64,000 nucleotides of DNA from Escherichia coli (GTDB taxonomy: Bacteria; Pseudomonadota; Gammaproteobacteria; Enterobacterales; Enterobacteriaceae): assembly GCF_050920415.1 (NCBI RefSeq), contig NZ_CP169309.1, one strand, 5' to 3'. The notes beneath the pieces are model-generated. The model was not told the origin of the DNA. It saw nothing but the letters and a program-made list of their open reading frames with translations, and searched no databases. How positions within the stretch are numbered: position 1 is the stretch's first letter; every line of letters begins with the position of its first letter. This document shows positions 2,163 to 21,108 of this stretch, piece after piece. Both the position numbers and the translations under genes were made by a program.

Positions 2163-3269
2163 TCAATGCGGTGTACGCCCGGTGTTAAAACGTTTTTCCA
2201 GATGTTGGCTATAACGTGACATGCTGAAACAGAAGATCCAGTAAATCAGTGCGGCGAAAACATAACCTTCCGTCGACATACCCAACCAGGCGGGATCAAC
2301 GGTTGCCTGCTGAACGCTACTGAAAAGATCGAACAACCCGATGATGATCACCAGGCTGGTATCTTTGAAGAGTGCGATGATGGTATTTACCAGCCCAGGA
2401 ATCACCAGCTTCAACGCCTGTGGCAAAATAACCAGCCCCTGGGTTTTCCAGTAACCCAACGCCAGCGACTCTGCCGCTTCATATTGCCCTTTAGGCAGCG
2501 CCTGTAATCCGCCTCGCACGACTTCCGCAACATATGCTGACTGAAACAGGATCACGCCAACCAGCGCGCGGATCAATTTGTCGATACTGGTGCCTTCTGC
2601 CATAAACAACGGCAGCATGACCGAAGACATAAACAGAACGGTAATCAGCGGTACACCGCGCCAGAACTCGATAAAAATGACCGATAAGATACGCACAATC
2701 GGCATATGGGAGCGGCGACCTAACGCCAGTAAGATCCCCCACGGCAGCGCCCCCGCAATCCCAACTGATGCAATAATTAAAGTGAGCGTCAGCCCGCCCC
2801 ATTGCCGGGTTTCAACCCGCTCAAGACCAAGAAACCCGCCATACATCAGCCACCAGACAATCAGTGGGTAAATCACCGCCCATACCGCAATATAGCGACC
2901 GCGATGCGGGAGTATTTTCCAGAACATTGGTGCGATAGAAACAAGGCCAATCAGTAATGCCAGGTTAATTCGCCAGCGTTGGTCGTGTGGGTAGAGCCCA
3001 TACATAAACTGACCGAATCGTTCGTGGATGAAGACCCAACAGGCACCTGCTTTTGTGCAGTCGGCACGCGTTGAGCCAACCCAATTAGCCTGCAAAAATG
3101 CCCAGTTCAGCAACGGTGGGATCAGTTCCCACATCAACCATATGCAGCCAATAGTCAGCAGGCTATTGCTCCAGCTGGAGAACAGATTTTTTCGCACCCA
3201 CACCATCGCGCGGCTTGAGTTATGGCTCGCCGGGCGCGGGGGATGAGACAGCAATACTTTTGTCATCAT
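2163..3269 (-). CDS. yhdY: amino-acid ABC transporter permease
   Basis: 368-aa polytopic membrane ORF; operon position between yhdZ and yhdX. Confidence 0.9.
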
Positions 3270-3275
3270 GACTCC

Positions 3276-4457
3276 TTAGCGTTCAACGATCGCGATGCGG
3301 CGGTTATAGATATTCATCAGCAGCGAGATAGTCAGGCTGATAATCAGATAGACCGACATGGTCATGGCTATCGTCTCGATGGCTTGCCCCGTCTGGTTCA
3401 GCACGGTGCCAGCAAACAGCGAAACCATATCGGGATAGCCAATAGCGGCGGCAAGAGAGGAGTTTTTGACGATGTTGAGATACTGGCTGGTTAACGGTGG
3501 AATAATCACCCGCAGTGCCTGGGGAATAATGACCTGGCGTAGCGTAACCGGGTTGGGTAATCCCAGTGACCGAGCAGCTTCATGTTGACCATAAGGCACT
3601 GCCTGGATCCCAGCGCGGATAATCTCGGCGATAAATGCAGAGGTATAAACCGAAAGTGCCAGCGTTAAGGCTGCCAGTTCAGGAATTAAAACCATCCCGC
3701 CACGGAAGTTAAAGCCTCGTAGGGCTGGAACATCCCAGTGTAGTGCTGCGCCAAAAAGCCATTGCGCCAGTAAAGGCAAACCGATGATCAACACAACGGC
3801 GACCGGCCAGGTTCGGCGCAATTGTCCGGTCTTTATCTGGTACGTTTTATTAAAACGGAATATTCCAACAGAAATGGCTATAGCAATAACAACAGTCAGG
3901 ATAAACGCAATAAATCCGTCTCCCAGCTGCGGCGACGGAATATAAAGCCCACGATTGCTTAAAAAGGCCAGATCAAACGCACTCACTGCCTGGCGTGGTC
4001 CGGGCAAATTGCGCAACACGGCAAAGTACCAGAAGAAGATTTGCAGTAGCGGCGGAATATTACGGAAGATCTCAATATAAATTGTGGAAAGCTTTCGTAG
4101 CAGCCAGTTATCCGAAAGTCGTGCCAGACCGATAAAGAAGCCCAGAACAGAAGCGAATACAATACACAATGCAGAAACCAGCAGCGTATTGAGTAAGCCA
4201 ACAATGAAAACGCGTCCGTAGGTATCACCCTGCTGGTAATCGATCAAATGCTGGACAATACCGAAGCCAGCGCCGCGATCCAGAAAGGCAAAACCCGAAG
4301 TAATGCCACGATTACTGAGATTCGTCACAGTGTTGTGAAATAGCCAACCAACAATGCCGACAACAGCAACAACGGCAAGGATCTGGAATAACCAGGCGCG
4401 AACCGTAGGGTTGGCAAAGGAGAGTGAGCCTTTAACGGTTGAGCGGCGATGAGACAT
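3276..4457 (-). CDS. yhdX: amino-acid ABC transporter permease
   Basis: Membrane permease ORF; the track ORF extends to 4475, internal Met MSHRRSTVKG chosen to match the ~393-aa length I expect. Confidence 0.85.
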   Translation of the reverse strand: MSHRRSTVKGSLSFANPTVRAWLFQILAVVAVVGIVGWLFHNTVTNLSNRGITSGFAFLDRGAGFGIVQHLIDYQQGDTYGRVFIVGLLNTLLVSALCIVFASVLGFFIGLARLSDNWLLRKLSTIYIEIFRNIPPLLQIFFWYFAVLRNLPGPRQAVSAFDLAFLSNRGLYIPSPQLGDGFIAFILTVVIAIAISVGIFRFNKTYQIKTGQLRRTWPVAVVLIIGLPLLAQWLFGAALHWDVPALRGFNFRGGMVLIPELAALTLALSVYTSAFIAEIIRAGIQAVPYGQHEAARSLGLPNPVTLRQVIIPQALRVIIPPLTSQYLNIVKNSSLAAAIGYPDMVSLFAGTVLNQTGQAIETIAMTMSVYLIISLTISLLMNIYNRRIAIVER

Positions 4458-4524
4458 AGAAACCTCGGAAAGCATAACGCTGAAGAGAGCGCCGCCGTAG
4501 CGACGCTCGTTACCTCACACCGAC

Positions 4525-5550
4525 TTAACGCACGGGCGGCGCGTACTGAATACCGCCGTTATTCCAGAGATTATTTTGCCCACGTTTAATCTTCAGGGGG
4601 CTTTCTGAACCTACGTTACGCTCAAAAATTTCCGAGTAATTACCCACCTGTTTGATGATGTTGTAAGCCCATTTATTATCCAGCTTCAGATCTTTACCGT
4701 AATCGCCCTCTTTACCCAGCAGATGCGCCATATCAGGCGTTGCAGGATTAGCCGCTTTTTCATCAACGTTTTGCGAATTAACGCCCATCTCTTCAGCATT
4801 CAGCATGGCGAAAAGCGTCCAGCGCACTATAGAGAACCATTCATCATCGCCACGACGAACTACCGGCCCAAGCGGTTCTTTAGAGATAACTTCCGGTAAA
4901 ACAATCCATTCAGCTGGGTTGCTTAATTTGATGCGCAGGGCATACAGTTGTGATTGATCCGAGGCCAGCGTATCGCAGCGGCCAGATTCCAGTGCCTTCG
5001 CGGATTCGTCAGAGCGATCGAAAGTCACTGGTGTGTACTTCATATTGTTTGCCTTGAAGTAATCGGCGACGTTGAGTTCGGTATCAGTACCCGCCTGAAT
5101 ACAGACTGTTGCGCCATCCAGTTCTTTCGCGCTTTTTAATCCCGCTTTATCGTGCGTCAGGAAACCAATGCCGTCATAATAAGTGACGCCAGTAAATGCC
5201 ATTCCCATACCGGCATCGCGAGAGGAAGTCCAGGTCGTATTACGGGAGAGCAAATCCACCTCCCCTGACTGTAAAGCCGTGAAGCGTTCTTTTGCAGTGA
5301 GCGGGGTATATTTCACTTTCGTGTCGTCACCAAATACAGCTGCCGCAACACCACGACAAACATCTACATCAATACCTGAAAACTTACCGTCAGCATCGGC
5401 ATAAGAGAACCCAGGTAATCCATCACTGATCCCGCATTGCACAAAACCTTTTTTCTGAACGGCATCAAGCGTCGCGCCAGCATGCGCCTGATTTGCAACG
5501 GCAAGCAGCACGCTGGCGGCAGCCAGTGTGGCTATCATCATCTTTTTCAT
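4525..5550 (-). CDS. yhdW: periplasmic amino-acid-binding protein of ABC transporter
   Basis: 341 aa with N-terminal signal peptide MKKMMIATLAAASVLLAVANQAHA. Confidence 0.9.
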   Translation of the reverse strand: MKKMMIATLAAASVLLAVANQAHAGATLDAVQKKGFVQCGISDGLPGFSYADADGKFSGIDVDVCRGVAAAVFGDDTKVKYTPLTAKERFTALQSGEVDLLSRNTTWTSSRDAGMGMAFTGVTYYDGIGFLTHDKAGLKSAKELDGATVCIQAGTDTELNVADYFKANNMKYTPVTFDRSDESAKALESGRCDTLASDQSQLYALRIKLSNPAEWIVLPEVISKEPLGPVVRRGDDEWFSIVRWTLFAMLNAEEMGVNSQNVDEKAANPATPDMAHLLGKEGDYGKDLKLDNKWAYNIIKQVGNYSEIFERNVGSESPLKIKRGQNNLWNNGGIQYAPPVR

Positions 5551-5980
5551 AATGCTTCCTGTGAGGCGAAAATTATCGTTATAGGACGTTTGGGAAACGT
5601 CTTTTACCTGTCTGTGGCCATCCTCTTATAAGCAAAAGTAGTGCCAGCTTTTGCGCACGATTTCGCGTCGCAATAAGCTGAGTGTAGACAGGAAATAATA
5701 AAAACAGCGCCCCGCAATGGTGCGAAAATGAAACATGCGCCACATTTTGGCGCAAAATATTTACGCATTTTTTACTAAGCAGAATAATGATTGTTAGCGT
5801 GAGTATATTTCTGGTAGGAAGTGTGAAAATTAAATTGATGCGTTATTTCGAAAGCAGCGAAATAACGCGATATAACATGCTAAATCAGCAGGGAATTACC
5901 CAGCAGAATATAGCAATATTTTATCTTATGGAGAGATACTGTATCGTTAAACAGAGCGCGGTACTCCGCGCCCTGTTCAG

Positions 5981-6202
5981 TTATTTCGACAGAGCGATGA
6001 TCCCCATCGTCAGGCCAGCAACAGCTGCTGCCCCGCCAGCAATAGCCCCAGCCGTTTCCCAGTTATCCTGAGTCGTGCCTTTCATACAGGTATTGGTGTG
6101 AACCAGTCGACCCTGATCGTCATAAACCGGAACGCAGGGCGAATCGTGAGCACAGCCCGCCAGCAATGCGGTGAGCAATGCTACAGGAATTAATCTTTTC
6201 AT
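5981..6202 (-). CDS. yhdV: small lipoprotein
   Basis: 73 aa with lipobox LLAGC near the N-terminus and Gly/Ala-rich C-terminus; expected position next to acrF. Confidence 0.8.
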   Translation of the reverse strand: MKRLIPVALLTALLAGCAHDSPCVPVYDDQGRLVHTNTCMKGTTQDNWETAGAIAGGAAAVAGLTMGIIALSK

Positions 6203-6454
6203 GGTGTTACCTCAGTAATAAACGCTAACGCTTAATAAGTTAACTCTCTTATTAACGAGCTGAATGCCATTTTATCACTGGAGGTTATAAATCTTGCGGC
6301 ATGAATAATGACAAATTATGTGAATTGTAAAAATAGTGAAGGGAGCGGGAACTATAGAAAGTTTTTAAAGAGTGAGTAGAAGAATATCTTATTAATTTTT
6401 ATGGGTTTCACTGAAAATAATAAAGGCACCCGAAAGCGCCTTTATGTTTCTGAT

Positions 6455-9400
6455 TTATCCTTTAAAGCAACGGCGGATAACCACAAAGAACACCGGCACG
6501 AAGAAGATTGCCAGCAACGTTGCAGAGACCATCCCGCCCATTACCCCGATACCCACTGCGTTCTGCGCGCCACTGCCGGCACCGTTACTGATAGCTAGCG
6601 GTAATACGCCGAGAATAAAGGCGAGAGAGGTCATCAGGATAGGACGCAGACGCATACGTACTGCCACCAGTGTCGCTTCAACAACACCTTTACCCTCTTT
6701 CTCCATGAGATCTTTAGCGAACTCAACAATCAAAATAGCGTTTTTGGCCGACAAGCCAATTGTCGTTAGCAAGCCCACCATAAAGTAGACGTCATTTTTT
6801 TGATTAAAGAGTGTCGCCGCCAGTAGCACGCCGACAATCCCTAACGGCACGACTAACATAACCGAGACAGGAATTGACCAGCTTTCATAGAGTGCAGCAA
6901 GGCACAGGAAAACAACCACAAAGGAAATTGCTACCAGAGCGGGAGCTTGGTTGCCCGATAAGCGTTCCTGATATGACATACCCGTCCAGTCATAACCAAT
7001 GCCAGCTGGTAATTGTGATGCAAGGTTTTCCATCAACGCCATGGCATCGCCGGAACTGGTTCCTGGCGCGGCTTCCCCCTGAATCTCCATTGACGGCAGA
7101 CCGTTGTAGCGCTCCAGTCGCGGAGAGCCATACACCCAATGTGCAGTGGTAAAGGCAGAGAATGGCACCATTTCGCCGTTGGCGCTGCGGACATAAAGTT
7201 TATCGACATCTTCTGGCAGCATACGGAATTTGGCATCCGCCTGAACATACACCTTTTTCACGCGACCACGGTCAATGAAGTCGTTAACGTAAGTCCCACC
7301 CAACGCCGTTGAAATGGTCTGATTGATGTCAGAAAGTGAAACACCTAATGCCTGCGCCTTTTCCTGGTCAACTTCCAGTTTAAACTGCGCGGTGTCTTCC
7401 AGACCATTAGGACGCACGCTGACTAAGCTGGCAGGATGTTGCGCCGCCATGCCAAGCAACTGGTTACGGGCCTGGGTCAGGGCATCGTGACCCAGCCCAG
7501 CCTGATCAATTAACTCAAAGTCGAAACCCGTTGCCGTGCCCAGTTCAACAATGGCTGGCATATTGAATGGAATGACAAAACCGTCGCGGATCTTGCCCAA
7601 TTCCATTTTGGCACGATGGATTACCGCTTCCGCACTGTTTTCGTCACCACTACGCTCTTCCCACGGTTTCAGACTGACGAAAGCCATACCGGCGTTTTGT
7701 GCCTGGCCGCTGAAGCTAAAGCCGTTAACCGTAAAGACACTTTCTACGTTCGCTTTCTCGTTCTTCAGATAGTAATCCGTCACTTGATCCAACACTTTTT
7801 GCGTCCGCTCTTGCGTCGCGCCAGCGGGTAACTGAATCATAGTCAGAAAGACACCCTGATCCTCTTCAGGTAAGAAGGAAGACGGAAGACGTAAAAACAA
7901 CACCACCATTCCAGCAACAATTAGTGCATAGATCAGTAAATATCGTCCTGTGGAACCGAGGATTTTGCCGACGCTGTTGGTGTAGTGGTTAACGCTATGA
8001 TCGAAGGTGGTATTAAACCAGCCGAAGAAACCGCCCTTATTTTCGTGATGCTCAGCAGAGACGGGTTTGAGCAGTGTTGCACATAACGCTGGGGTAAGAA
8101 TCAATGCCACCAGAACAGAAAGCGCCATTGCCGAAACGATGGTGATAGAGAACTGGCGATAAATGGCCCCAGTAGAACCGCCGAAGAATGCCATCGGAAT
8201 AAATACCGCTGACAGCACCATCGCGATACCCACCAGTGCGCCCTGGATTTGCGACATTGATTTTTCCGTCGCTTCTTTTGGCGGGAGCTTATCCTCCATC
8301 ATCACGCGCTCGACGTTCTCCACCACCACTATCGCATCATCGACGAGCAGCCCGATGGCAAGCACCATCCCGAACATAGTTAGTGTATTGATGGAGTAAC
8401 CAAAAGCGGCGAGGATGGCAAACGTCCCTAACAACACCACGGGTACCGCAATGGTGGGGATCAGCGTTGCTCGCATATTCTGCAAGAACAGATACATCAC
8501 CAGGAACACCAGCATAATGGCTTCGAACAGCGTTTTTACCACTTCGTGAATAGAAAGCTGGACGAATGGTGTGGTGTCATAAGGGTAGAGAACCTTCATT
8601 CCCTGCGGGAAGAATGGCTGTAATTCCGCCAGTTTTGCCTTAATGGCTTTCGCGGTATCGAGAGCATTCGCGCCGGTTGCCAGCTTAATACCCAGGCCCG
8701 CCGCCGGTTTACCGTTGATGCGAGCGATAACGTTATAGTTTTCACCGCCAAGTTCAACCCGTGCGACATCTTTCAGGCGTACCACCGAGCCGTCACTGTT
8801 TACGCGCAGGGTCACTTTGCCGAATTCTTCCGGATTTTTTAACCGCGTCTGAGCAATAATCGAGGCGTTCAACTGTTGCCCTGGTAACGCTGGCGTTCCG
8901 CCCAACTGTCCGGCAGCGATCTGATCGTTCTGTACCTTCAACTGGTTAATCACATCAACCGGCGTCAGTTTATATTTGTTTAGCAGATCGGCGTCCAACC
9001 AGATACGCATCGCATACTGTGCGCCGAAAAGCTGTACATCACCGACGCCATTCAGACGGCTAAGCGTATCTTTAACGTTAGAGGCCACATAGTCCGAGAT
9101 ATCGTCCTGTGTGGTGCCTGGGTTATCAGAGACAAAGCCCGCCACCATCAAATAGCTGCTACTGGACTTTTCAACACTGATCCCCTGCTGCTGTACCTCC
9201 TGCGGCAGCAACGGCGTGGCGAGCTGGAGTTTGTTCTGCACCTGCACTTGCGCGATATCAGGATCGGTCCCGGACTGGAAGGTAAGGGTAATTGTCACGC
9301 TACCGGCGGAATCGCTGGTGGAGGACATATACATCAGGTTATCGATACCATTCATATTCTGTTCGATAACCTGCGTCACCGTATCCTGCACGGTCTGCGC

Positions 9401-18685: not shown

Positions 18686-19156
18686 TTACTCGATGACGAC
18701 CAGCGGCTCGTCAAATTCTACCGGTTGTCCACTTTCGACCAGAATTGCTTTCACGGTACCGGATTTGTCCGCTTCGATCTGGTTCATCATTTTCATGGCT
18801 TCAACGATGCACAGGGTATCGCCCACGTTGACTTTCTGACCCACTTCGATGAACGCTTTTGCGTCCGGGCTTGGGGTGCGGTAGAAAGTACCAACCATCG
18901 GGGAACGTACGATGTGACCACTGATTTCCGCTGCTGCTGGCGCTTCCATGGAAGGAACGGTCGCCGGAGCGGCTGCGTTAGATTGAGCTGGCTGCTGCAT
19001 CATTGGTGCAGCGTAAGCTTGTTGCATCACAGGGAAACTTGCGGCAGGAGCTGCACGGCTGATGCGTACTGACTCTTCGCCTTCTGAGATTTCCAGTTCG
19101 GAGATGCCTGATTCTTCAACCAGCTCGATCAGTTTTTTAATCTTACGAATATCCAT
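18686..19156 (-). CDS. accB: biotin carboxyl carrier protein (BCCP)
   Basis: 156 aa with biotinylation motif [10 protein letters not shown] and Ala/Pro-rich linker. Confidence 0.97.
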
Positions 19157-20133
19157 GAGTGGGTTCCGTACTCTTTGTTTAGTGTGATTGTGACAGGCGT
19201 TTCACCGCCGTCTGTAAAGCGTATGCCCCGACAGCTGTATGCATAGCGATAAATTCCAGCAGGCCGGGACGCCGGTCTATTTTGCCCCAGAGTGTCAATG
19301 TTAGACTTGACGGACATTGTGCAGCGATCTGCTGCTATCCTCCGGCAAAAAACAAAATATACCTTCGTTGCGCCAATGTCACCTTTTCCGCAGCGCAAAA
19401 ACTGCGTCAGGGAGGACGAGGTCGCACATTATAACGATTTCGTAGCAATTGGCAGCTAAATACTGGTCTTATCAGGGAAGATAATCAACAGCTAACATGT
19501 AAATAACCTTCAACACCGTGTAATTTGCAACAAGCCGCACAATTCACGAAATTAGCGCTATCGTCGACGGAACTTCTTATAACGTAAGGCTAAAAGCTGT
19601 AAAGCCAGCTCTGCGAAGATGAGGGGCTGCAATGAGATGATCCTCACAGACCACAAATAATGTAGGGATGTCAGGATCGCGGCAAGATAGACGACATTAC
19701 GCAGCGGTTGCTGGTGATTACTCAATTTTCACGGCATCGTCTGGATAAACGTGAATGCTAAAGCACGCAAAATCAACAAACTGACAATGCTCAGCATCAA
19801 ATACGTTCGAGTGGTTAATTTGTAGGCAAATAAAATCAGATTATTCACCCCATGGTACCAGAAATCAGTAACAGGTTAAGCGTAGCGTCGCCCAGGCAAA
19901 GCACCATAAACCTAACAGGCGACGGAGGCGTATCAATAATGGCTGTTTAGTGGAGTAACAGTGCGCATCAATTTATGGTCAGTCGAAATCATGACTTTCC
20001 AGTTTGGATGATGTTGTACAACTTCATGACCAAGATGTTCGACGAAAGCTGTCCGGCTAACCGCTTTTCCCGTTAACCGATTGAATAATGATTTCAAAAT
20101 GAGTTCCCTCTCTTATTAATCCTTGCTAAATGG

Positions 20134-21108
20134 TTAGTTAATCTTCACCAGCGTGCGACCCTGGATCTGGTTATTAATGATGGCTTCGGCAAATTTTGGT
20201 GCTTCTGCCAGAGATATCTCTTTTGCTGCCTGGGTATAGAATGATTCCGGTAAATCGGCGACCAGTCGCTGCCAGGCTTGTGCGCGGCGTGCTGGTGGCG
20301 TCATCACTGAATCCACCCCCTGTAAACGGACATTACGCAGAATAAATGGCATGACCGTGGTTGGCAGAGTAAAACCACCCGCCAGACCACAGGCCGCCAC
20401 GCAGCCGCCGTAATTCATTTGCGCCAGCACTTTCGCCAGCACTTTGTCGCCAACGGTGTCAATTGCCCCAGCCCAGAGTTGTTTTTCCAGAGGACGGGAT
20501 TCGGCAAACTCATCGCGAGGGAGAATACGGCTGGCACCTAAACTTTTCAGATATTCATGGGTACTTTCGCGACCGGAAACGGCAACGACCTGATAACCCA
20601 ACTTATGCAGCAGCGCCACGGCGGTACTGCCGACGCCACCACTGGCACCCGTTACGACAATCTCGCCGTCCTGCGGGCGAACACCGGCATCTTCCAGCGC
20701 CATCACACACAGCATGGCGGTAAAACCGGCAGTACCGATAATCATTGCTTTACGCGCGTCCAGCCCTTGCGGCATGGCAACCAGCCAGTCACCTTTCACT
20801 CGCGCCTGCTCCGCCAGCCCACCCCAGTGGTTTTCACCAACGCCCCAGCCAGTGAGTAATACGTCCTGACCGGCATGAAAACGCGGATCTTCGCTGGTGC
20901 GTACAGTTCCGGCAAAATCGATCCCAGGAATCATCGGAAAATTACGGATGATTTTTCCCTTACCGGTAATTGCCAGCGCATCTTTGTAGTTCAGGCTCGA
21001 CCAGTGAACATCAACCGTGACATCGCCCTCCGGCAGGCGACTTTCGTCCAGAGTCTGTACCGATGCGAGAGTTTTGCCGTCCTGCTGTTCTAAAAGTAAC
21101 GCCTGCAT
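20134..21108 (-). CDS. acuI: NADPH-dependent acrylyl-CoA reductase (MDR family, YhdH)
   Basis: 324 aa zinc-independent quinone-oxidoreductase-like protein, MQALLLEQQDGKTLASVQTLDESRLPEGDVTVD... Confidence 0.9.
   Translation of the reverse strand: MQALLLEQQDGKTLASVQTLDESRLPEGDVTVDVHWSSLNYKDALAITGKGKIIRNFPMIPGIDFAGTVRTSEDPRFHAGQDVLLTGWGVGENHWGGLAEQARVKGDWLVAMPQGLDARKAMIIGTAGFTAMLCVMALEDAGVRPQDGEIVVTGASGGVGSTAVALLHKLGYQVVAVSGRESTHEYLKSLGASRILPRDEFAESRPLEKQLWAGAIDTVGDKVLAKVLAQMNYGGCVAACGLAGGFTLPTTVMPFILRNVRLQGVDSVMTPPARRAQAWQRLVADLPESFYTQAAKEISLAEAPKFAEAIINNQIQGRTLVKIN

Follow-up and report, generated by a model that had tools for sequence, protein, structure and literature searches.

Gene remnants around the accBC promoter and leader in the interval between accB and acuI of Escherichia coli

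Introduction

Other Enterobacterales have an aroQ-accB-accC operon, an arrangement that is known in other Gammaproteobacteria as well; E. coli uses the unrelated type I enzyme AroD. The accBC operon of E. coli reportedly has an 'unusually long leader' containing an open reading frame, as Li and Cronan are said to have described in J Bacteriol in 1993. Upstream of this operon, other Enterobacterales carry the msrPQ (yedYZ) operon for a methionine-sulfoxide reductase. In E. coli K-12 the DNA between yhdH/acuI and accB holds yrdF (b4697, 143 nt) and yrdE (b4646, 394 nt), which the curated MG1655 record NC_000913.3 lists as pseudogenes and which are also given as pseudogenes in a 2020 paper (PMC7648144). 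AccB is reported in PMC11602165, citing James and Cronan 2004, to autoregulate accBC transcription without a DNA-binding motif, and direct regulation of the acc genes by FadR has been proposed (PMC11602165, PMC7041290).

The locus described here is the interval between accB and acuI in a 64-kb stretch of E. coli DNA, the whole of which is referred to as the window. Compared with the aroQ-accB-accC operon of other Enterobacterales it has the same promoter block, 5' UTR, start-codon position, last 47 nt of aroQ and 22-nt spacer, but a net 314 nt of the aroQ interior is gone, the Shine-Dalgarno sequence GGAG is mutated and no Pfam match is left. The leader of Li and Cronan corresponds here to 263 nt with a 62-codon open reading frame starting at 19317, and is traced below to a degraded aroQ. 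Compared with the msrPQ operon, the remnant yrdE' is homologous to msrQ codons 68–199 and lies at the msrPQ site of other Enterobacterales, but msrP is missing and the remnant is without its first 67 codons and without three of the four invariant histidines. The K-12 pseudogenes yrdF and yrdE occupy the same place with the same boundaries and show no essential difference from their counterparts in the window. The observation of a long gap is real and its explanation ordinary: a working accBC promoter and leader are surrounded by what is left of yrdF, msrQ and aroQ, msrP having been erased.

Results and discussion

Position, size and occurrence of the interval

The first-pass annotation of the window reported an ORF-poor gap of about 1 kb between accB and acuI, and its coordinates proved exact. 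The gap covers 19157–20133 (977 bp) and is flanked by the ATG of accB at 19156 and the stop codon of acuI at 20134, both genes being on the minus strand. The order of features on this strand is csrD, acuI (21108–20134), the interval, accB (19156–18686), accC, yhdT and panF. Among the gaps between long ORFs of the window, for which the median is 67 bp, this is the largest. The comparison of its length with that in reference E. coli gave an identical value of 977 bp for K-12 MG1655 (positions 3,404,459–3,405,435), and the interval was found in 5425 of 5426 complete E. coli genomes at identities of 95–100%, reaching 100% in strain MFDS1022581.

The same annotation held that the gap is free of ORFs of 60 or more amino acids in the orientation of the genes on either side. 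This was not correct, as a minus-strand ORF at 19129..19398 encodes 89 amino acids from a TTG, or 62 from the ATG at 19317, and enters accB by 28 nt. It is the ORF of the accBC leader.

Three decayed genes, the promoter of accBC and its long leader make up the interval, a composition that is ordinary and for the most part already annotated. The full explanation, in which gene remnants lie beside a working promoter, is held with high confidence, and its consequences for annotation are small since the gap resolves into two curated pseudogenes and a mapped promoter. Only the remnant in the leader appears to be unrecorded.

The accBC promoter

A very highly conserved block of 70 nt (19421..19490, minus strand) was identified as the promoter block of the (aroQ-)accBC operon from conservation, a promoter scan and the transcription start site of K-12. 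The scan gave a sigma-70 site at 19455–19428 with 10 of 12 matches, consisting of a −35 hexamer CTGCCA (19455–19450) and a −10 hexamer TATAAT (19433–19428) separated by a 16-nt spacer. The start site of accB in K-12 was mapped at −263 with 7 reads and was assigned to exactly this pair, CTGCCA/TATAAT (Mendoza-Vargas et al., PLoS One 2009; PMC2760140, supplementary file 3), which places the start site of the window near 19419. The sigma-70 promoter accBp is therefore defined by both hexamers and by an experimentally mapped start site in K-12, and the earlier statement that part of the gap holds the accBC promoter and a long leader was borne out.

Over this block none of the 74 loci compared falls below 81% identity, and the median is 96%. 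The window and K-12 are 100% identical over it, and this identity spans 19490–19330. On the plus strand at 19462–19468, just upstream of the −35 hexamer, the sequence ACTGGTC forms a putative FadR-like half-site. Between the ancestral msrQ stop codon and the promoter block lies a spacer (19491..19551, minus strand) which is moderately conserved in the alignment.

Origin of the accBC leader

The distance from the promoter block to accB is about 647 nt in most genera, but 321–353 nt in Escherichia, Citrobacter, Salmonella, the Klebsiella oxytoca group and Superficieibacter. The extra DNA of the long-spaced genera is an ORF of 150 codons encoding a class II dehydroquinase (Pfam PF01220, DHquinase_II; E=8e-61 for the Yokenella ORF), and a full-length, intact aroQ precedes accB in 55 loci. 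Raoultella has aroQ, which the Klebsiella oxytoca group lacks. When the window was aligned with Yokenella using blastn, two colinear pieces were obtained. The first runs from 19492 to 19297 (81% identity, E=1e-51) and stops 21 nt into aroQ, and the second runs from 19225 to 19157 (98.6%, E=1e-31) and consists of the last 47 nt of aroQ and the following spacer. The two are separated by 71 nt in the window and by 385 nt in Yokenella, a net loss of 314 nt. By tblastn the window matched residues 136–150 of AroQ at 93% identity (E=0.006), while translations of the window gave no match to Pfam PF01220. The leader thus retains colinear homology to the beginning and the end of aroQ at an unchanged distance from accB, and the two-piece alignment identifies the ATG at 19317, which opens the 62-codon leader ORF, as the old aroQ start codon.

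On this basis the minus-strand leader was divided into three parts. The first (19318..19419) is the former 5' UTR of aroQ and contains the elements GTGACA-N17-TATTTT and a T-run (about 19392–19340) as well as the mutated aroQ Shine-Dalgarno sequence. At the position of the latter, GGAG is present in 54 of the 55 loci that carry aroQ and in none of the 20 loci that do not. The second part (19179..19317) is the aroQ remnant itself, 139 nt long compared with 453 nt for the intact gene, and is composed of the start codon with about seven codons, 71 nt that cannot be aligned and the last 47 nt of the gene, including its TAA at 19179–19181. The third is the 22-nt aroQ-accB spacer (19157..19178), which carries the ribosome-binding region of accB and is nearly invariant in the aligned loci of seven genera.

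The surviving 3' end of aroQ is unusual in its conservation. In intact aroQ genes the third-codon conservation of the last 10 codons is 0.90, compared with 0.58–0.83 in the other 10-codon bins, which suggests that the retained end may overlap a signal for accB expression. Within Escherichia, 3–4 of 86 positions differ in the middle of the remnant against 8–22% at the four-fold sites of accB and accC, and between genera the same stretch is as diverged as neutral sites. The low value within Escherichia hints that the remnant might not be entirely neutral. It is possible, although we consider it somewhat doubtful, that the long leader represents an aroQ remnant put to new use, whose surviving pieces may carry cis signals for accB and whose 3'-end element could be the target of autoregulation by AccB. 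Whatever its role, the aroQ origin indicates to studies of accBC regulation which segments of the leader are conserved and which are debris. A link between aroQ and the accBC leader of E. coli was absent from the annotations examined and from the searchable literature, in a search that was incomplete; provisionally, the origin of the long leader is regarded as unrecorded and as a modest new detail.

RNA elements in the leader

The first-pass annotation had suggested that the remainder of the gap could encode an sRNA or small proteins. Neither suggestion was upheld, since K-12 carries two annotated pseudogenes in this DNA (yrdF and yrdE) and no Rfam family reached its gathering threshold in the interval. 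Matches to STnc410, ssnA and FuFi-1 were weak (E>2) and were discarded.

A further match was obtained with Rfam RF02764, Ysr190 (Yersinia sRNA 190), which aligned over its full length at 19354–19453 with 25.3 bits against a threshold of 66. In Yersinia this family occupies the homologous promoter and 5' UTR upstream of aroQ-accBC, and in Yersinia similis it scores 127.8 bits directly upstream of aroQ. The leader could on these grounds give rise to a regulatory RNA or attenuated transcript of about 70–100 nt resembling Ysr190, extending from the accBC start to the T-run at about 19354–19340 and controlling accBC transcription. The strong conservation of the T-rich block and the reported autoregulation by AccB despite its missing DNA-binding motif would agree with such a transcript. 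Its existence is nevertheless judged unlikely. The score in the window is far below threshold, and the aligned stretch opens before the start site mapped in E. coli, taking in the −10 hexamer; the best-aligned part of Ysr190 is promoter DNA upstream of the start site, so that the match may reflect conservation of the promoter and not of an RNA. No consensus structure was found by RNAalifold in 72 leaders, a terminator scan at the leader T-run found nothing, and the conserved GTGACA-N17-TATTTT with its T-run can be read as a second promoter as well as an attenuator U-tract. The reading preferred here remains that of a promoter followed by a leader derived from aroQ. Visual inspection suggests a small hairpin at about +15 to +35 (19398–19380), with a T-rich loop, a sequence that varies and a register that shifts between genera.

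yrdE' is a remnant of msrQ

The segment 19552..19954 on the minus strand, here yrdE', was assigned to msrQ codons 68–199 using the NCBIfam MsrQ profile, K-12 yrdE and a comparison, codon by codon, with the intact msrQ from L011, a species representative labelled E. coli. Its conceptual translation matches positions 69–195 of the 212 in NCBIfam NF003831 with E=5.6e-25 and 88.1 bits, below the cut-off of 130, and scores 15.9 bits against Pfam PF01794, under the cut-off of 28. A protein search with yrdE' returned MsrQ proteins at 61–70% identity, the exception being a 124-aa E. coli fragment of the same remnant (79%).

An intact MsrQ of about 199–211 amino acids is not encoded, as codons 1–67 are gone and the remaining frame contains three in-frame stops and one frameshift. 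In the order of transcription, the alignment to L011 places these lesions at a TGA (19865–19867), a +1 frameshift near 19857, a TGA in place of Arg141 (19729–19731) and a TAG (19558–19560) two codons ahead of the ancestral TAA at 19552–19554. The damage extends to the residues most strongly conserved in the family. Of 65 positions that are near-invariant (at least 97%) in 77 intact orthologues, 18 are changed in yrdE', and among the four histidines invariant in these orthologues (45, 91, 151 and 164) the first is deleted, H91R and H151R have been substituted and only H164 is kept. No trace of msrP was detected in the window by tblastn with MsrP.

The remnant is recognised in existing annotation. 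In several strains PGAP annotates a YedZ or cytochrome b pseudogene here, frameshifted and truncated at the N-terminus, and K-12 yrdE, equivalent to 19954–19561, is 92.6% identical to the sequence of the window. The two show point differences, for example the TAG of the window at 19558–19560, in place of which K-12 has a TGA one codon earlier.

yrdF' is the beginning of a DUF1444-like gene

Adjacent to yrdE' on the acuI side, the minus-strand segment 19955..20097 (yrdF') corresponds to the first 143 nt, or about 48 codons, of a DUF1444-like gene and is 95.8% identical to the 143 nt of K-12 yrdF, equivalent to 20097–19955. Its reading frame continues out of frame into the msrQ remnant, giving an ORF of 54 amino acids at 19933–20097. 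Most of yrdF is retained in 667 of 5426 complete E. coli genomes (12%), and the other genomes have only its first 140–143 nt; positions 1–179 of the interval align with the start of this long allele at 97.8% identity. In E. albertii the ORF that begins at the same TTG has 271 codons, and in E. coli ECN24 and RM8352 PGAP annotates a protein of 276 amino acids, which it calls a DUF1444 domain protein in the first or second of these strains and hypothetical in the remaining one. The identity of the 54-aa ORF is thereby settled as the beginning of the DUF1444-like gene. Two other origins had been considered for it, a remnant of the msrP N-terminus and a relative of the C-terminal tail of E. coli MsrQ (with which it shares 'SLFNRL'), and were rejected because local DNA alignments to msrP and msrQ regions scored no higher than shuffled controls.

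The family assignment of the full-length relative is itself weak. Its match to Pfam DUF1444 (PF07285) spans the whole model at 18.0 bits, for a cut-off of 23.8, and its match to NCBIfam PRK13668 reaches 20.5 bits against 221. PADLOC gave no defence-system match for the DUF1444-like protein.

A spacer of 36 nt (20098..20133, minus strand) separates the acuI stop codon from the start of yrdF. Within it, an SD-like GAGGG precedes the TTG (K-12 position 3,404,495) by 7 nt. The same 36-nt spacer stands in front of the gene in strains with the intact 276-aa version. No intrinsic terminator was predicted after acuI.

Small open reading frames

Two ORFs of 22 codons had been put forward as possible small-protein genes. 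Both exist, although the positions given for them were off by about 10 nt, and the remark that neither has a Shine-Dalgarno sequence was correct. The first, the hydrophobic MLSIVSLLILRALAFTFIQTMP, lies inside yrdE' on the minus strand (19797 to 19729) and aligns with MsrQ residues 119–140. It opens at an ATG inside msrQ (K-12 position 3,404,795), ends at the nonsense codon of position 141 and represents part of a membrane helix of the dead gene. The check for its conservation was negative, as 4–6 of its 22 residues differ from those in each of three other E. coli strains; it reads MLSIVNRLILRALAFTSIQTMQ in K-12 and MRNIVSRLILRALAFTSFRTMQ in L002. The second, MMLYNFMTKMFDESCPANRFSR, lies on the plus strand at 20008..20076, antisense to yrdF', and is part of a 33-aa ORF at 19975..20076. 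In E. albertii the corresponding antisense frame reaches 57 amino acids inside the intact gene.

The interval could in principle encode one or more functional small proteins, namely the 54-aa N-terminal product of yrdF', the hydrophobic 22-aa peptide or the 22-aa peptide of the plus strand. The 54-aa ORF retains the native SD-like GAGGG and the TTG start, lies 36 nt past acuI with no predicted terminator between, is uninterrupted in each of the four short-allele strains examined and is named a hypothetical protein by PGAP in one strain. Its tail is variable, however, amino-acid changes occur in its body also, and profile searches of NCBIfam and Pfam found no family match. The hydrophobic peptide resembles many small membrane proteins in its hydrophobicity, but is explained as a piece of MsrQ ended by a nonsense mutation, varies between strains and has no Shine-Dalgarno sequence, which is also lacking from the plus-strand ORF, itself antisense to a pseudogene. 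Both loci are regarded as pseudogenes by the K-12 curators. A functional product from any of the three is accordingly considered extremely improbable, and promotion of the candidate ORFs to genes is not warranted; the 54-aa ORF of yrdF' may be translated at a low level.

Divergence of the remnants

To gauge the divergence of the region, the window was compared with three further E. coli strains. Differences were 7–9% in yrdE', 2–4% in yrdF', 2.5–3% in acuI, 0.6–1.3% in accB and 0–0.6% in the 400 nt upstream of accB. Divergence was therefore fastest in yrdE', although the contrast is confounded, as acuI too is more divergent than accB and a recombination boundary may lie between them and inflate it. 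Judged from their decay, yrdF' and yrdE' are probably without function. In a study of K-12 that used DNA just downstream of yrdE as a neutral site for a marker, a kanamycin cassette placed between the equivalents of 19520 and 19521 left growth rate and cell dimensions like those of the wild type (bioRxiv 10.1101/359208).

The persistence of the remnant in 5425 of 5426 genomes and the lack of a predicted intrinsic terminator on the 3' side of acuI might be explained if the pseudogene DNA had been co-opted as regulatory DNA, acting as an upstream element of accBC or as a termination zone for acuI. This is thought very unlikely given that the remnant diverges faster than anything else in the region, that two distinct deletion alleles coexist in E. 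coli, that an insertion between the remnant and the promoter is neutral and that the promoter block is the same in genera with intact msrPQ. The explanation favoured here is that the remnants are decaying beside a working promoter.

Two alleles and a proposed order of losses

AcuI was used to retrieve loci from 80 genomes across the Enterobacterales. Intact msrP and msrQ adjoin acuI in 77 of the 80, in genera as far apart as Citrobacter, Salmonella, Yersinia, Erwinia and Pantoea, including one locus, that of Citrobacter amalonaticus, in which msrP was matched in pieces only, and two (L010 and L011) whose genomes represent species but bear the label E. coli. Of these 77 loci, 55 also have an intact aroQ ahead of accB. 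Wherever the contig extends to accB, the msrP/msrQ pair lies between acuI and accB, as in Citrobacter enshiensis, where the order is csrD - acuI - msrP - msrQ - accB - accC.

Within Escherichia two alleles of the decayed locus were distinguished. In the short allele, found in the window and in K-12, yrdF codons 1–48 are fused to msrQ from codon 68. The long allele, found in 12% of E. coli and in E. albertii, contains the full yrdF, a trace of msrP (codons 8–27, 78% over 60 nt, E=4e-8) and msrQ from about codon 102. The short allele has kept msrQ codons 68–101, which the long allele is missing, and the long allele has kept yrdF and msrP sequence that the short allele is missing; as each holds a piece that the other has lost, neither derives from the other. 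Both would accordingly have arisen by independent deletions from an ancestor with the order acuI - yrdF - msrP - msrQ - accB. The TGA at codon 141, in place of Arg141, is common to both E. coli alleles and E. albertii, and it follows that msrQ was already dead before the deletions. This two-allele history is a small addition to existing knowledge.

A sequence of events can be proposed from these comparisons. The ancestral layout, judged from other genera, would have been acuI - msrP - msrQ - promoter - aroQ - accB - accC. A net 314 nt would have been lost from the interior of aroQ, leaving its promoter, 5' UTR, start codon and last 47 nt as the 263-nt leader of accBC. The DUF1444-like yrdF would have become placed downstream of acuI, and msrQ would have gained the nonsense mutation at codon 141, either of these coming first. 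A single deletion, starting at yrdF codon 48 and reaching msrQ codon 67, would then have taken out the whole of msrP as well. The promoter and leader (about 19157–19490) still drive the essential accBC operon, and the segment 19552–20097, comprising yrdF' and yrdE', is probably decaying neutrally, its small ORFs being accidents of that decay.

The functional msrPQ of E. coli is found elsewhere, between a gene of the transthyretin family and zinT. The products of this zinT-linked pair are 93–95% (MsrP) and 91–94% (MsrQ) identical to those of the acuI-accB copies in L010 and L011, compared with at most 92% and at most 88%, respectively, to those of Citrobacter. These identities fit a duplication or relocation of msrPQ within Escherichia, followed by decay of the original copy. 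The locus would then record the relocation stepwise, the original between acuI and accB having decayed through two deletion alleles and the copy beside zinT having taken over.

Location of msrP-msrQ in Escherichia

The functional msrPQ genes of E. coli adjoin zinT and a transthyretin-family gene, and were located at 2996-4636 of the compared genome locus L009. The MsrQ encoded there has a C-terminal tail that is 12 residues longer than that of the 199-residue orthologues. Two further loci labelled 'Escherichia coli', both from GTDB species representatives (strains SCPM-O-B-8794 and E69), contain intact msrP and msrQ genes downstream of acuI (L010, 6001-8371; L011, 6001-9543), and the DUF1444-like gene is absent from both. 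The contig of L011 reaches accB, which places its msrP-msrQ pair between acuI and accB. The 4-fold-site distance from the window, as measured for L011, is similar to that of E. albertii, so that both loci probably belong to Escherichia species other than E. coli. The copies at the acuI-accB locus of L010 and L011 were also the closest to the msrPQ found beside zinT in E. coli (93-95% for MsrP), and this similarity in sequence suggests a relocation of msrPQ within the genus Escherichia rather than a distant transfer.

The best protein match to the msrQ remnant of the window, a 124-residue 'YedZ' (P0001), originates from assembly GCA_900450075.1 (L006). Nearly all genes of this region are fragmented in that assembly, including mreB, csrD, accB, accC, panF and prmA, and the short protein is therefore probably an artefact of low assembly quality.

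Retention of the DUF1444-like gene

The DUF1444-like gene encodes 271-276 residues, as in L090 and L091 (2066-2896 in each) and L012 (7012-7827). It is intact in E. albertii and at or near full length in approximately 12% of complete E. coli genomes, with only 143 nt left in the remaining E. coli genomes. A PADLOC search using the DUF1444-like protein gave no match.

Loss of aroQ and features of the accBC leader

The aroQ gene is missing upstream of accB in Klebsiella spallanzanii, K. michiganensis, K. grimontii and K. indica (L021, L024, L025, L074), whereas it is present at this position in Raoultella (L023, L026, L028). The first 9-15 aroQ codons are nearly intact in the Klebsiella remnants, and together these observations indicate that aroQ may have been lost more than once. 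Among 52 loci with intact aroQ, the conservation of third codon positions is also raised in another segment of the gene, codons 61-80 (approximately 9068-9127 in L029), at 0.81-0.83, which may reflect an internal signal such as an accBC promoter.

The Rfam family Ysr190 ('Yersinia sRNA 190') matched L080 at 8989-9090, coinciding with the aroQ-accBC promoter and 5' UTR, and the model starts upstream of the conserved -10 element of this operon. Ysr190 may be a fragment of the leader and not an independent sRNA gene. A small putative hairpin (CGCAG/CTGCG) with a T-rich loop lies early in the leader, at 19398-19380 of the window. It was not recovered by an alignment-based test over the leaders because its register shifts between genera; an early-leader hairpin is seen again in many genera, with differing stem sequences.

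Elsewhere in the window, the interval at 5551-6454 (904 bp) is the second largest of the gaps that separate long ORFs.
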